Positions 4,630 through 9,685 are shown, counted from the first letter of the stretch. The stretch is 9,685 bases of DNA from a virus (IMGVR_UViG_2737471850_000009:1-9685); one strand, 5' to 3'. Numbers and translations are program-made. Notes: generated by a model not told the origin, from the sequence alone.

Positions 4630-5163
4630 ATGAGTCTGGAAAAATTGCTAATCAAAGATAGAAAATGTGGTTCATGTTCTGTTTGTTGTAAATCCCTGAG
4701 AATCGAAGAGCCAGAGCTTAAAAAATTTGCTGGAGTGCCATGTCAGCATCTTAAAGCACAGGGCGGATGTTCGATTTATAATGATCGCCCATCTCTATGT
4801 CGTACGTGGTACTGCGGATGGAGAGTTTTAGGTATCGGTCCGGAAATGAGGCCTGATCGTTGTGGTGTTCTTATTCGCTTCGATGGCAAAGCTCTGTGCT
4901 TTCAGCCAGTAAATGATGGTCAAGTTACTACATTGCTTGATCCAGAGCCTTTACGTGTTTTAAGCAGTTCAATTGCAAATGGGATGACCGTTCAGATTTC
5001 GATTCCGACAAAAGAAGGCTTTTGCTCTTCAAATGTCGACGTTACAGCAGCTATGACCGAGGTAGTTAAAACCAGAGAGTTTGATAAGATTCGTGCAACT
5101 ATGATTGGATTAATTCAATTCGCTGCGAATTCGAAGACAGACCCGATTGCTCCTTTAAATTAG
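4630..5163 (+). CDS. YkgJ-family cysteine-cluster protein (CxxCxxCC putative Zn/Fe-chelating domain, UPF0153-like)
   Basis: 177-aa ORF with AAGGAGG SD 9 nt upstream. Carries CGSCSVCC (CxxCxxCC) and later GGCSIYNDRPSLCRTWYC, matching the two hallmark segments of the YkgJ/CxxCxxCC family. Opposite strand to all flanking phage genes and visibly AT-richer (sampled stretches roughly 32-43% GC versus the clearly GC-richer late genes). Confidence 0.75.
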   Translation: MSLEKLLIKDRKCGSCSVCCKSLRIEEPELKKFAGVPCQHLKAQGGCSIYNDRPSLCRTWYCGWRVLGIGPEMRPDRCGVLIRFDGKALCFQPVNDGQVTTLLDPEPLRVLSSSIANGMTVQISIPTKEGFCSSNVDVTAAMTEVVKTREFDKIRATMIGLIQFAANSKTDPIAPLN

Positions 5164-5557: not shown

Positions 5558-5788
5558 CTACTTGATTTCGAGTTTCTCCTTCTGACAATTTGCCTGCCAC
5601 GCTTTGTTATGCGTCAGGATGTCGCGCTTGGTCTGCTTATCCAACACATCCCAGTCATTATCTGTTGCATAGATAGGATGAACCCAGTCGCACGCCGTAT
5701 CGACTACCTCAACCCTTACGGGTCCAGTTTGTGCGCAGCTCGCGATCAACGTCGTCGCCAGGCATATGATTAACTTTCTGCTGTACAT
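5558..5788 (-). CDS. o-spanin (Rz1-like outer-membrane lipoprotein)
   Basis: Internal ATG at 5788 (MYSRKLIICLATTLIASCAQTGP...) preceded by GAGAGG with a 6-nt spacer. Signal peptide with lipobox-like IASC. The gene begins inside the i-spanin gene in another frame and extends past it (overlapped architecture as in P2 lysB/lysC). The longer track ORF from 5959 is treated as an artefactual extension. Confidence 0.55.
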   Translation of the reverse strand: MYSRKLIICLATTLIASCAQTGPVRVEVVDTACDWVHPIYATDNDWDVLDKQTKRDILTHNKAWQANCQKEKLEIK

Positions 5789-5981
5789 TACTGGCCTCTC
5801 TGGTGACTTCTGCCTGACGTTCTGCCACTGCAACCTTCGCCGCTGCGTTTTCTTCAGTGCGTTGTTGATCGGCTTTCGCTTCTGCTTTGCTGGTTCCGCG
5901 AATATGGCCAAGACCAAACCCACCAGCAGCGGCAACACAGATAGCACCAATGACACCAATGATGATTTCTACAATGCTCAT
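5709..5981 (-). CDS. i-spanin (Rz-like; N-terminal TM helix plus charged coiled-coil periplasmic region)
   Basis: The ATG overlaps the endolysin stop (ATGA). N-terminal hydrophobic helix IVEIIIGVIGAICVAAAGGFGLG followed by an Ala/Glu/Lys/Gln-rich segment. Sits immediately after the endolysin. At 90 aa it is short for an i-spanin. Confidence 0.5.
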   Translation of the reverse strand: MSIVEIIIGVIGAICVAAAGGFGLGHIRGTSKAEAKADQQRTEENAAAKVAVAERQAEVTREASNVQQKVNHMPGDDVDRELRTNWTRKG

Positions 5982-6589
5982 GCAATCACCGCTTTCGCTT
6001 TGCCGTAACGCACGCGTCTGTCGTTAATGCCGTTCTGACCGCCATTGATAATCTGAGTGATGCGCACCAGGTCATCGGTGTACTTCAGGCAACCTTTGGA
6101 GGCGTAGAACCATGCAGCAGAACGCGCAGCATTGATGTCTTTCTCCAGCAGTTCAGGGTTAGTAACCAGGTCAAGCTTCAGACCATTGCCGCAATCACGG
6201 TAATTGGTGAGACCGGTAATCTGAATTAATCCGCGCCCACGGTATTTCCAGCCATCACCAGCAGCTTTATTACCCAGGCGGTTGCTGTATACCAGGTTCG
6301 CGATAGCTTCCTGACTTGCTGGCTTACCGTTGGCACGTCCAAGCATTGAGGCCTGGTAGTTCGTTACCCGGCGTCCAAACGTCGTCAGTAATGCGGCAGG
6401 CGTGTAGTTGAAGTTCTCCACCAGCGCAGAGAATCCCGCCGATTCATGTCCTACCTGAGCAATGAACATCGCCTTATCTTTTGGTTCAGTGATGCCGAAC
6501 TCTTTCATTGCATCCGTAATCGGCTGAAACCAGCGCGCAGCTAACCCGGCGCTAATTACAGCCGCCTGTTGAAATTGTGATTGGTTCAT
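5978..6589 (-). CDS. Endolysin, glycoside hydrolase family 19 (chitinase-like phage lysozyme)
   Basis: 203-aa ORF with GH19-type endolysin sequence character (e.g. FIAQVGHESAGF, KYRGRGLIQITG, INGG segments). Its ATG overlaps the stop of the upstream membrane-protein gene. Confidence 0.85.
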   Translation of the reverse strand: MNQSQFQQAAVISAGLAARWFQPITDAMKEFGITEPKDKAMFIAQVGHESAGFSALVENFNYTPAALLTTFGRRVTNYQASMLGRANGKPASQEAIANLVYSNRLGNKAAGDGWKYRGRGLIQITGLTNYRDCGNGLKLDLVTNPELLEKDINAARSAAWFYASKGCLKYTDDLVRITQIINGGQNGINDRRVRYGKAKAVIA

Positions 6590-6864
6590 TAATGCCTCAG
6601 CGTATCAACGAGACGCGCTACGTTCCCACGAGCCCATAAGACGGCAGCGCAAATAAGAAGGTTTACGATGACCACCATCCAGTGTGACTCCTGGTAGAGG
6701 CCAAACAGATATCGGAATGGAACGCTGGCATAAACCAGCACAACGAAGTACGCCAGCAATGATATAGCGGGGCGATGTCTTGCCCCTTCACGCTGGTAGA
6801 ACATCAGGACGATGACTGCACAAATACCTGCATTCACCATCGCTGACGGATCACTTGTTACCAT
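6589..6864 (-). CDS. Small membrane protein, putative holin/antiholin
   Basis: Start placed at ATG 6864 with GGAGG upstream (the track uses GTG at 6882). Two to three hydrophobic helices. Its stop overlaps the endolysin start. Confidence 0.5.
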   Translation of the reverse strand: MVTSDPSAMVNAGICAVIVLMFYQREGARHRPAISLLAYFVVLVYASVPFRYLFGLYQESHWMVVIVNLLICAAVLWARGNVARLVDTLRH

Positions 6865-7246
6865 TGCTGGCCCCTCCTCCACGGAATCGCGAAAGAATAC
6901 TGAACAGGCTTCCCAAATCCTGACTGTTGAAAAATGTGAGCACTTTGATTGTCATCGCCGCCACTACAACAGCACCAAGCGCGTCTAATGGTCTGTCACT
7001 GTACCCGGTAGCTTGTGACAACTTTGAACCAACCAGGCCAGCAGCAAGAACGCCAACAATGAATGACGTCATGAAGTAAGCAATCAGTCGTACTCGTGTG
7101 ATATTTGCCGCTGTCGCTACATAAAATACTGCACCAGCGAATGCGCCAAATACCACGCCATAATCAATACCGGTTGCGAGACCAAATACACTGGCTCCCA
7201 TCAGGCCACCAGCCGCGACCGTAGTGCCAGAAACAGGATCGGACAT
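6851..7246 (-). CDS. Phage holin-family membrane protein
   Basis: 131-aa ORF with Gly/Ala-rich transmembrane helices and a hydrophilic C-terminus. GAGGGGG SD upstream. It is the first gene after the late terminator, as expected for a holin. Confidence 0.6.
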   Translation of the reverse strand: MSDPVSGTTVAAGGLMGASVFGLATGIDYGVVFGAFAGAVFYVATAANITRVRLIAYFMTSFIVGVLAAGLVGSKLSQATGYSDRPLDALGAVVVAAMTIKVLTFFNSQDLGSLFSILSRFRGGGASNGNK

Positions 7247-7428: not shown

Positions 7429-7980
7429 CTTAAATCTGTCGCTATTTGTGCCGAATGCGTCACAAACTGGAGCGTACAGGATCGATTCTGCTAGACTTAG
7501 CCAAGTGTCAATGCGACGACGGCAGGTGATCAGCGGCCAATCAGGGTGTTTAGCCTGCAGTTCATTGGCCATCTGCAACTTACTCTTACGTAGGCGATGG
7601 CGGTCGACAATCACGCTATAGAGCGATCGGTAGTCATCATTCATCAGTACAGAAGCAATGACTCCGTCAACTAACAACCCTTCTTCGTCTGAACAGAACG
7701 CCAGACCGCTTTTATTTTTGCTGTTGAGGATTTCACGCAGGTACGCTTCAAGTTCAGGCTTGGTGATACCTGATTTCTTCATGCGGCGCAGAGCATCATT
7801 GATAGCTGTCTTGGTGATTTTCCCGGATGCCAGAAGCTGGTTAAACATGTTCCCACCACTACCGCCGCCGATATAAGACCAGCGGCCCCACATGCGCAAC
7901 TTACCCTGTATCCAGATGCTTTCCAGAGTACGAAGACGAACCATTTCACCAGATTTACCAACTTCAGAAGGATTAATCAT
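7402..7980 (-). CDS. Late-gene antiterminator Q (phage 82 / QuuD-like family)
   Basis: 192-aa ORF with GGAGAA SD upstream. Segments RMWGRW and CSDEEGLLVDG...YSVIVD resemble the ERWGAW and Cys/Asp-rich blocks I recall from 82-type Q proteins. Position immediately upstream of promoter, terminator and lysis genes supports the call. Confidence 0.65.
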   Translation of the reverse strand: MINPSEVGKSGEMVRLRTLESIWIQGKLRMWGRWSYIGGGSGGNMFNQLLASGKITKTAINDALRRMKKSGITKPELEAYLREILNSKNKSGLAFCSDEEGLLVDGVIASVLMNDDYRSLYSVIVDRHRLRKSKLQMANELQAKHPDWPLITCRRRIDTWLSLAESILYAPVCDAFGTNSDRFKLQSEQESA

Positions 7981-7994
7981 TTAGCGTTCTCCAC

Positions 7995-8318
7995 TTACGC
8001 CAGTACGCCGATTGCCAGCGCACGATCTATAACCCGAAACATCAGGACCATCTGGTCACCGTATTTCGCTTCAAATGCCACAGGATCAGCATGCAACTCG
8101 TCGTGATGCTCTCTGCACAGAGGAATCACAAACAGGTCGTGTGCCTTTGTACCCATTCCACCCTGCCCGTGGCCAATCAGGTGGTGGGGGTCGTCAGCTT
8201 GCTTGTTACAGCAGACGCACAGCTGGGCCTTAACCCATCTCGTGTATTTCTCATTCACCCAGCGACGACGCTTGGGTTTAAGCATGAAGGATTCCGGTGT
8301 CTCCGGGTCTACCTTCAT
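7995..8318 (-). CDS. HNH-motif protein of nin-region type (DUF968 / Ref-like putative nuclease)
   Basis: CVCCNKQADDPHHLIGHGQGG...CREHHDELH shows a Cys pair plus paired His motifs. Sits immediately upstream of Q, as nin-region genes do in lambdoid phages. Start uncertain: GTG at 8324 (track), ATG at 8318, or ATG at 8285. Confidence 0.5.
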   Translation of the reverse strand: MKVDPETPESFMLKPKRRRWVNEKYTRWVKAQLCVCCNKQADDPHHLIGHGQGGMGTKAHDLFVIPLCREHHDELHADPVAFEAKYGDQMVLMFRVIDRALAIGVLA

Positions 8319-8790
8319 CGCCACTATCTTTTTCGCTTTCTCCTGTACCTTCGCTTATGCGGTTCAGGTTGCTGTTTTAGAAATTCGCGAAGCCCGTTGT
8401 AAGTACAAAGAACTGCAATCACAAAACGCAGACATGGCAGTACAGCTCGCTAACGCCGAGAGCAAGTGCAGGGAGCTGGCGTTGGAGAATGCATACATCC
8501 GCAACCGGTACAAAGAACTGGACTTGTTAATCGGGAAAAACATCCTGGTCATGCAGGCAGCGATTATCGAATGGCAGGCAACTGGCGACGCTAAGAACGG
8601 GCTGTCATGGATTTATAACACCCTGTTTGGGCCTAGTGAATTGCCTGACGAATCTGAGAAAGATGCTCAGGCCTACTTTGACCGCAAATATGCACCGATT
8701 AACGAAGAGTTGATGGCACTTCACAAGTGGTTTTGGGAACAAAGTGAAGTTGAACGTGCCGCCGCTGGCATTGGCGTGAAGGGGGAGTGA
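8284..8790 (+). CDS. Hypothetical protein: N-terminal hydrophobic helix plus coiled-coil-like region
   Basis: First ATG of the track ORF (which begins at a TTG at 8203). MKDSGVSGSTFIATIFFAFSCTFAYAVQVAVL is followed by heptad-like KYKELQSQNADMAVQLANAESKCRELALENAYIRNRYKELD. The antisense frames look like junk. No family recognised. Its 5' end overlaps the 5' end of the divergent DUF968-like gene. Confidence 0.5.
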   Translation: MKDSGVSGSTFIATIFFAFSCTFAYAVQVAVLEIREARCKYKELQSQNADMAVQLANAESKCRELALENAYIRNRYKELDLLIGKNILVMQAAIIEWQATGDAKNGLSWIYNTLFGPSELPDESEKDAQAYFDRKYAPINEELMALHKWFWEQSEVERAAAGIGVKGE

Positions 8791-8791
8791 G

Positions 8792-8965
8792 ATGGCAGAA
8801 CGCTGGAAGATTCTCCTGCTAATAGCATTTATTTTTTTGACGGTCATTCCAGTAAGCATGGTGGCCGTGAAGGTTTATGTGTCTCCATGGCTGCTAATTG
8901 CAGGTCATGCAGGCGCAATGCTTTTCGGTTTTATATGCGCTGAGCTCGCGCGGAAGGATTACTAA
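8792..8965 (+). CDS. Small hydrophobic protein (57 aa, two predicted TM helices)
   Basis: Not in the ORF track (under 60 aa). ATG 8792 preceded by GGGGGAG. Translation MAERWKILLLIAFIFLTVIPVSMVAVKVYVSPWLLIAGHAGAMLFGFICAELARKDY. The stop lies 3 nt before the recombinase ATG, in the same frame. Confidence 0.4.
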   Translation: MAERWKILLLIAFIFLTVIPVSMVAVKVYVSPWLLIAGHAGAMLFGFICAELARKDY

Positions 8966-8968
8966 CCC

Positions 8969-9685
8969 ATGACAACTAACAACCACCCGGCGAACGGTCC
9001 TGTATCACTCGATCGGCTGCACCAGATACGCGAAATACTCAGCAAAGCAGCAGCACAAAGCGACGGCGGTAATCTCGGCTACGCAATGGCTGATGCTGTG
9101 AAGGTGATTGATGGGGCAATTGCTGAGTTTGGTAACCCATGCGTAGGCGTCGATAAATACCCTAAACCTCAGCGCGACCGATACATTACGGATGAAGAGT
9201 ATTTAGCAATTTATGACTGTGCTACTGATCCGGTAAAAGCCGCAATGGAAATTGCTTATCTCTGTGCAGCGAGGGTTTCCGATGTTCTGAAAATGGACTG
9301 GAATCAGATAATGGATAAAGGAATTTTCATTCAACAGGGTAAAACTGGAGTTAAGCAGATTAAAGCGTGGACAGACCGCTTGCACTCCGCTGTCAATCTT
9401 TGCAGGAAATCAGGGGAAGATGGCGCTGTCATCAAAACCATGTACGGAGAGCGATATTCCTATAAAGGTTTCAATGAAGCCTGGAGAAAGGCTAGGAATG
9501 CGGCTGCTGAAAAAATTGGCAGACCGTTAGACTGCACGTTCCATGATCTGAAGGCGAAAGGCATTTCTGACTATGAAGGAAGTGGCCGTGATAAGCAAAA
9601 ATTCAGTGGTCACAAAACTGAATCACAGGTGTTGGTATACGACAGGAAAGTAAAAATTAGCCCAACTTTAAACAGAAAAATGTGA
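8969..9685 (+). CDS. Tyrosine recombinase, lambda-Int-like catalytic domain only (arm-binding domain absent)
   Basis: 238 aa. Aligns by eye to the C-terminal ~250 residues of lambda Int (RYITDEEYLAIY...ARVSDVLKMDW...QQGKTGVK...TFHDLK...GHKTESQVLVYDR versus lambda LTADEYLKIY...QRVGDLCEMKW...SKTGVK...TFHELR...GHKSDTMASQYRD). The catalytic Arg-I, Lys, His and Tyr are present, but Arg-II is Lys. Ends with a stop at the window edge. Confidence 0.8.
   Translation: MTTNNHPANGPVSLDRLHQIREILSKAAAQSDGGNLGYAMADAVKVIDGAIAEFGNPCVGVDKYPKPQRDRYITDEEYLAIYDCATDPVKAAMEIAYLCAARVSDVLKMDWNQIMDKGIFIQQGKTGVKQIKAWTDRLHSAVNLCRKSGEDGAVIKTMYGERYSYKGFNEAWRKARNAAAEKIGRPLDCTFHDLKAKGISDYEGSGRDKQKFSGHKTESQVLVYDRKVKISPTLNRKM

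Follow-up and report, generated by a model that had tools for sequence, protein, structure and literature searches.

The DNA analysed here, a window of 9,685 nucleotides from a virus, ends in an open reading frame (ORF) whose nature bears on whether the element can still excise. The initial annotation described the 238-aa product as a lambda Int-like tyrosine recombinase that has no arm-binding domain and carries lysine at the second catalytic arginine (Arg-II). Two options were offered: (a) the 3' portion of a prophage int gene that survived an internal deletion and acquired a new start codon, or (b) a short FimB/FimE-like recombinase with altered chemistry or a DNA-binding-only role. We are confident, from sequence comparisons, that the ORF is best read as a dead integrase remnant. 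It would have arisen when a deletion fused part of int in frame to another gene, in a prophage at serU that carries two deletions and is presumably locked in.

The catalytic domain and its active-site residues

We searched the ORF with Pfam profiles, as the initial annotation had proposed, and found the phage integrase domain (PF00589) at ORF residues 72-226. The match scored 44.7 bits (E = 1.6e-11) against a curated cut-off of 27.1 bits and covered profile positions 2-167 of 172, confirming that a catalytic domain is present. Lambda Int was the sole PDB match for the ORF (phmmer, E ~1e-10), with ORF residues 66-224 aligned to lambda Int residues 174-342 at ~27% identity. A comparison with the NCBIfam models matched no family.

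The fold of the protein was examined in an AF2 model. Residues ~70-205 of the 238-aa ORF were modelled with pLDDT above 90, and residues 1-66 with pLDDT of 37-54. The best local fold match of the modelled ORF was the lambda Int catalytic core 1ae9, with a TMt of 0.72 and an rmsd of 3.0 A.

The catalytic residues were assigned from a phmmer alignment and a MAFFT alignment, both of which agreed. The ORF and its active-site positions are as follows.

8969-9685, plus strand: chimeric 238-aa ORF, in which the 5' part of an early-left gene and the 3' part of int are joined in frame; its TGA stop is the final triplet of the window (ORF list, PF00589)
9272-9274, plus strand: Arg-I, R102 (AARVSD), equivalent to lambda R212 (phmmer, MAFFT)
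9341-9343, plus strand: catalytic beta-hairpin Lys, K125 (QGKTGVK), equivalent to lambda K235 (phmmer, MAFFT)
9542-9553, plus strand: HDLK box, with H192 equivalent to lambda H308 and K195 at the Arg-II position (lambda R311; the lambda box reads HELR) (phmmer, MAFFT)
9611-9613, plus strand: His-III, H215 (GHK), equivalent to lambda H333 (phmmer, MAFFT)
9638-9640, plus strand: nucleophile Tyr, Y224 (LVYDR), equivalent to lambda Y342 (phmmer, MAFFT)

Arginine at the Arg-II position of the HxxR box is absent from the ORF, and K195 stands in its place. The HDLK reading of the initial annotation was thus upheld, since K195 pairs with lambda R311 in the phmmer and MAFFT alignments alike. The same alignments bore out its statement that Arg-I, the Lys, the GHK His and the Tyr are kept (R102, K125, H215 and Y224). 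Compared with lambda Int (1ae9 for the catalytic core, 1z1g for the full-length protein), the ORF therefore has the same catalytic fold and the equivalents of R212, K235, H308, H333 and Y342, but it has Lys for R311 and is without the N-domain or the core-binding domain.

Two parent genes and their junction

We determined the parentage of the region by megablast against 5426 complete E. coli genomes, and found that it splits into two unrelated pieces, which meet within a single codon.

8969-9130, plus strand: codons 1-54, which stem from the beginning of an unrelated hypothetical gene (783 nt, 260 aa) in the lambdoid early-left operon
9131-9133, plus strand: deletion junction GGT (Gly55), a 2-3 nt microhomology common to both parent genes
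9131-9685, plus strand: last 555 nt of an ST64B-family int gene, encoding the linker and the complete catalytic domain (megablast)

The piece from the donor gene is 96% identical to two E. coli loci (L003 6489-6641 and L010 5581-5746). Window positions 8961-9113 show 96% identity to the 5' end of the 783-nt gene, and with a closer allele from E. coli ES8 the homology extends to 9133. The intact prophage of E. coli MB06232 carries, in order, an ea22-like gene, a small hypothetical gene, the 783-nt gene, a 3'-5' exonuclease gene, an excisionase gene and the integrase gene. A Pfam scan of the 260-aa donor protein, and of the ea22-like ORF and the 57-aa ORF that precede the fusion in the window, matched nothing. 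The donor piece supplies the start codon and the ribosome-binding site of the ORF. The initial annotation had taken the start codon for a new one, but it is the native one of the upstream gene, which is unrelated to int and joined to it in frame.

The int piece comprises 185 codons including the stop, and corresponds to residues 145-329 of a parent gene of 990 nt (329 aa). It has 97.1% nucleotide identity to the int gene of E. coli CUWW10 (L001 6001-6555), which is annotated as a tyrosine-type recombinase/integrase (WP_248872576.1, 329 aa). The CUWW10 gene lies 115 nt from the tRNA-Ser(CGA) gene serU, with mtfA adjoining. We found 16 differences from the CUWW10 allele, all synonymous and 0 non-synonymous, and the 184 encoded residues (ORF residues 55-238) are 100% identical to the C-terminus of this E. 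coli member of the ST64B-family integrases. The 16:0 count is compatible with purifying selection and could be read as selection that continues on the ORF. Most simply, it may reflect functional alleles that diverged before a recent deletion.

Integrase-derived sequence begins at ORF residue 55/56, which is parent residue 145/146 and, in the MAFFT alignment, about lambda residue 162. This point is the end of the core-binding domain or the interdomain linker, just before the detectable lambda homology (residue 174), and at most the last few residues of the core-binding domain are left in the ORF. The initial annotation had placed the start of the protein near lambda residue ~100, with a tail of the core-binding domain. 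This placement has to be corrected, because the first 54 residues are not integrase and the int part begins only at about lambda 162. Its claim that the arm-binding domain is missing was supported: a tblastn search with parent Int residues 1-146 against the whole window gave no match (best E = 8.8). Five excisionase or putative excisionase proteins, taken from the int-adjacent genes of relatives, also gave no significant tblastn match in the window. Option (a), internal deletion of a prophage int gene down to its 3' part, is supported by the 555 nt from the 3' end of int and by the tRNA-Ser gene that lies beyond the window.

FimB and FimE are similar to the ORF in overall length, and all of them contain the PF00589 domain. 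A protein of 238 aa with this domain and with Lys at Arg-II could be a genuine short, autonomous recombinase of the FimB/FimE kind, its chemistry altered by the Lys, that acts on nearby inverted repeats or att sites. We consider this highly improbable. FimB and FimE own an N-terminal DNA-binding domain and a flanking invertible element, whereas the ORF has a foreign N-terminus, lies beside no such element and descends from an arm-type integrase. Another, unrelated gene contributes its first 54 aa, which have low confidence in the model. From there on, the protein equals the C-terminus of an arm-type integrase of 329 aa, and Lys is normal in the full-length parent clade. Moreover, the NCBIfam models gave no match, and a search near the ORF for inverted repeats that could bracket an invertible segment found only 14-nt pairs at chance level. 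These observations speak against option (b) of the initial annotation in both its FimB/FimE-like and its DNA-binding-only form.

The two homologies overlap at the junction: that to the ES8 allele ends at 9133, and that to int begins at 9131. The shared GGT is a microhomology of the type left by illegitimate deletion.

The exact 238-aa protein is rare. It was found in 3 Logan contigs only, in a collection of 15 billion proteins, and has no record in NCBI. In the set of complete E. coli genomes, not one (0/5426) covers 80% or more of positions 8200-9685, and exact-match scans with 43 nt and 21 nt of junction sequence found it absent from 185,579 species-representative genomes. The protein is known solely from Logan short-read assemblies, and the contigs end within the repeated tRNA-Ser sequence. 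Both features would fit a chimeric contig assembled from a real genome with a full-length int gene. Against such an artefact, the junction sits in unique sequence rather than in a repeat, and it was found in contigs from at least two sequencing runs (ERR3333579 and SRR8095548). The junction contigs also differ among themselves, by 3 mismatches and a 6-nt indel over 9.7 kb, and a few substitutions set them apart from the window as well. Since slightly differing contigs from separate runs share the junction, we conclude that it is real and inherited, and an assembly accident is very hard to credit.

Lysine at Arg-II in the parent clade

The initial annotation treated the Lys at Arg-II as an anomaly of the present copy. 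We found that the full-length CUWW10 integrase already reads HDLK, and that its relatives have the same HD[L/I]K box. These include the Int of the Klebsiella phage KpF5 (88.8% identical to the CUWW10 integrase) and the integrases of the Salmonella phages ST64B (Sb28) and 118970_sal3 (84.5%). The box is likewise present in Stenotrophomonas phage BUCT708 (58%), E. coli phage 606R7 (58.5%), Pectobacterium phage ZF40 (48%) and phage mEp390 (47%).

A wider set of homologues was taken from the best 120 matches of a search of 5.8 billion proteins. Among these best 120 matches, the box is HD[L/I]K in 97/97 homologues that retain the motif region, down to 55% identity. The other 23 are either fragments that end before the motif or full-length proteins that escaped the regular expression and, when read individually, show HDIK or HDLK. 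We also compared 120 full-length representatives at 50% identity (P0121-P0268). At Arg-II, 85 of them have Lys, 33 have Arg and 2 are degenerate (HDIG and QDIN), and the 33 nearest in the ranking all have Lys. The equivalents of R212, K235, H308, H333 and Y342 are kept throughout the 120 representatives.

By these comparisons, Lys is the ancestral, fixed state of a large clade of lambda-type integrases, among them those of viable temperate phages. The Lys of the remnant was inherited unchanged from a functional parent clade and is not part of the decay. As an anomaly of this copy the substitution does not stand, because it is fixed across the ST64B/KpF5/mEp390/ZF40 integrase clade, full-length members included. 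For the same reason, the Lys says nothing about altered chemistry in the remnant.

Lys at this position is uncommon in the family at large. Across tyrosine recombinases, Arg-II is R in 99.1% and K in 0.5% (PMC2943603), and the small number of natural Lys variants has also been remarked on elsewhere (PMC4381057). The Cre mutant R292K is active in vivo and in vitro, yet its covalent intermediate builds up, and vaccinia TopIB R223K keeps ~10% of its activity (PMC2943603). A natural Lys integrase, Pal_Y-Int_1, gave integration in 18.7% of plasmid-receiving cells, and a second Lys integrase failed (PMC12884075). Excision of the ST64B prophage is measurable by attP qPCR, and its reintegration has been attributed partly to another integrase, IntA (PMC12455584). 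As the prophage's own integrase, Sb28 would be the enzyme behind this excision. If the ST64B-like clade works with Lys where Cre R292K accumulates an intermediate, this implies compensating changes in the active site. Lys at Arg-II is known in outline, from 0.5% of the family, and the literature searched contained no study of it in the ST64B-like clade.

Decay of the prophage at serU

As a whole, the window represents a lambdoid prophage whose packaging genes are HK97-like. The minus strand encodes first the portal, the large terminase, the small terminase and an HNH protein, next the lysis proteins (spanins, a GH19 endolysin, two holins), and then a DUF1133 Q-like protein and a DUF968 protein. 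The plus strand carries the ea22-like gene, the 57-aa ORF and the int fusion. The genes next to the fusion are as follows.

7995-8345, minus strand: DUF968 gene reduced to its C-terminal third, directly adjoining the ea22-like gene (PF06147)
8284-8790, plus strand: ead/Ea22-like gene, with which the surviving part of the early-left operon begins (93.9% identity to annotated ead/Ea22-like genes from 8485 on)
8792-8965, plus strand: ORF for a hydrophobic 57-aa protein, upstream of the fusion in its operon and syntenic with the small hypothetical gene of intact relatives

Three further features of the late region were observed. A moron-like cargo gene, a 177-aa ORF (4630-5163, plus strand), is inserted where the lysis cassette meets the HNH-terminase genes, in the opposite orientation to both. 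It has a weak CxxCxxCC domain (putative zinc/iron-chelating, YkgJ-like; Pfam score 22.5 against a cut-off of 23). Downstream of the GH19 endolysin gene, an overlapping ORF pair (5558-5981, minus strand) resembles i-spanin/o-spanin, and the longer ORF of the pair contains a lipoprotein-box-like LIASC motif. Upstream of the endolysin, two neighbouring holin genes (6589-7246, minus strand) match PF05449 (Phage_holin_3_7) and PF16931 (Phage_holin_8) and overlap by ~30 nt.

The DUF968 remnant covers only positions 68-171 of the 171 in the PF06147 profile, and its intact homologue in E. coli Z142-3 (L002) has 329 aa. DUF968 homology ends at 8345, and ea22-type homology begins at 8429-8485. A distant BLAST search of positions 8320-8500 against E. 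coli genomes matched only 8429-8493, to ea22-like coiled-coil segments, and 8346-8428 matched nothing. In intact relatives, rdgC, the repressor gene, cro, ymfL, the replication genes and the nin genes stand between ea22 and DUF968, and all of them are absent from the window. The truncated DUF968 gene abutting the ea22-like gene thus marks a second deletion, which removed the immunity and replication region. Taken together, the gene content indicates that the element has undergone at least two internal deletions. It no longer has its immunity and replication region or its early-left promoter, it is without an excisionase gene, and int is missing its first 435 nt. A search of positions 7900-9685 for a sigma-70 consensus promoter found none, against 2.2 expected by chance, a difference that carries little weight.

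Rfam and tRNA scans of the window found nothing, as the tRNA gene lies just past its end. The initial annotation had advised extending the sequence past 9685 in search of a tRNA 3' end, and this proved informative. Two contigs that carry the exact ORF (L008 and L009) run 143 nt past the stop codon. Past a 115-nt spacer they enter the minus-strand tRNA-Ser(CGA) gene at its 3' end, which reads TGGCGGAGAGAGGGGGATTTGAACCCCC. The layout of spacer and tRNA is identical to that in CUWW10 and Z142-3, which places the ORF at the prophage end in serU. Within the spacer, TTTTCTCA occurs three times as a direct repeat, at spacings of 13 and 10 nt (L008 10756-10786, 38-68 nt past the window end). The repeats are kept downstream of int in ST64B (L012) and KpF5 (L004), where the flanks are divergent. 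They are candidate P'-arm Int-binding sites of this integrase clade, and the domain that would bind them is missing from the remnant.

With the ST64B-family integrases, the remnant shares the HDLK box, the position next to tRNA-Ser(CGA) and the three downstream TTTTCTCA repeats. The full-length WP_248872576.1 is ~85-89% identical to ST64B Sb28 and KpF5 Int. In contrast to these integrases, the remnant is without parent residues 1-144, has 54 foreign N-terminal residues instead, and has no excisionase gene adjacent to it. Since the ORF falls short of the ~329 aa of the clade, it is a remnant and not an intact ST64B/KpF5 member.

We propose the following origin. An illegitimate deletion at GGT would have joined codon 54/55 of the early-left gene to codon 145/146 of int. 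This first deletion would have removed the rest of the early-left gene, the intervening genes (the exonuclease gene and xis in intact relatives) and the arm- and core-binding domains of Int. The fusion would have fallen in frame by chance, so that an ORF survived with the start of the upstream gene, the linker and the catalytic domain. The second deletion, from DUF968 to the ea22-like gene, would have taken away the repressor, the early promoter and the replication region.

Lambda-type integrases need their arm- and core-binding domains, and Xis for excision. From these requirements, the fusion has presumably lost recombination activity. It would also be poorly expressed. Without the arm- and core-binding domains, the excisionase gene and the native promoters, the protein should be unable to assemble an intasome on the att sites. 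The prophage end would then be locked in unless Int and Xis act in trans, because no intasome could form. It is decayed and probably excision-dead.

Prophage decay is well known to leave truncated int pseudogenes next to tRNA genes. The 238-aa fusion is an ordinary case of it, although the exact fusion is absent from NCBI. A second case was found in E. coli Z142-3 (L002 4680-5370), in which a 370-nt int remnant, annotated as a pseudogene, lies at serU and abuts a truncated ymfL gene. Both cases are 3' int fragments left beside the serU tRNA after an internal deletion, and the early genes are lost in both. The Z142-3 remnant differs in having another breakpoint and in abutting an opposite-strand ymfL, whereas the present fusion is in frame and leaves an open ORF of 238 aa. 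The same int also occurs truncated behind unrelated foreign N-termini, possibly created by IS insertions, in the E. coli protein clusters P0064 (226 aa) and P0103 (189 aa). These independent truncations look like recurrent prophage decay that halts short of the adjacent tRNA gene. A further representative, P0121 (232 aa), in which int begins at almost the same residue, was considered as a recurrence of the fusion and rejected, as its N-terminus reads by eye as frameshifted int.

The CUWW10 locus was also inspected. Its full-length int gene is stranded, with IS1 immediately upstream, and beyond the IS1 lie gtr-type glucosyltransferase genes disrupted by IS1 (L001 4783-5480 and 594-1291). The CUWW10 element is thus also a decayed remnant, of a serotype-converting prophage.

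A different outcome would be that the fusion is expressed and that its lone catalytic domain has a residual or new activity. It could nick and close DNA like a type IB topoisomerase, or act as a dominant negative against phages with the same Int type at serU. The isolated catalytic fragment of lambda Int (residues 170-356) retains topoisomerase activity. The predicted fold of the ORF is complete and confidently modelled, with all catalytic residues of the clade. The reading frame is uninterrupted, and the upstream gene gives it a native start and ribosome-binding site. Several independent E. coli remnants also keep the catalytic-domain ORF open. However, the fusion is very rare (3 contigs), a fusion has a 1-in-3 chance of being in frame, the native promoters are gone and the search for a consensus promoter was negative. 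The N-termini of the other remnants are unrelated, as expected of random decay that stops before the tRNA gene, and there is no sign of selection after the fusion. We regard such an activity as unlikely. If it were true, a dominant-negative block of ST64B/KpF5-type integration or excision at serU would be a form of superinfection interference.

Under the preferred reading, that of a dead integrase remnant, this end of the serU prophage should remain in the chromosome for good, except where a related phage provides Int and Xis in trans. The locus also indicates that a substituted catalytic residue in a fragment is to be judged against its own full-length family before it is called an anomaly. 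The ST64B/KpF5/mEp390/ZF40 clade, in turn, offers a convenient natural system for studying how tyrosine recombinases tolerate Lys at Arg-II.
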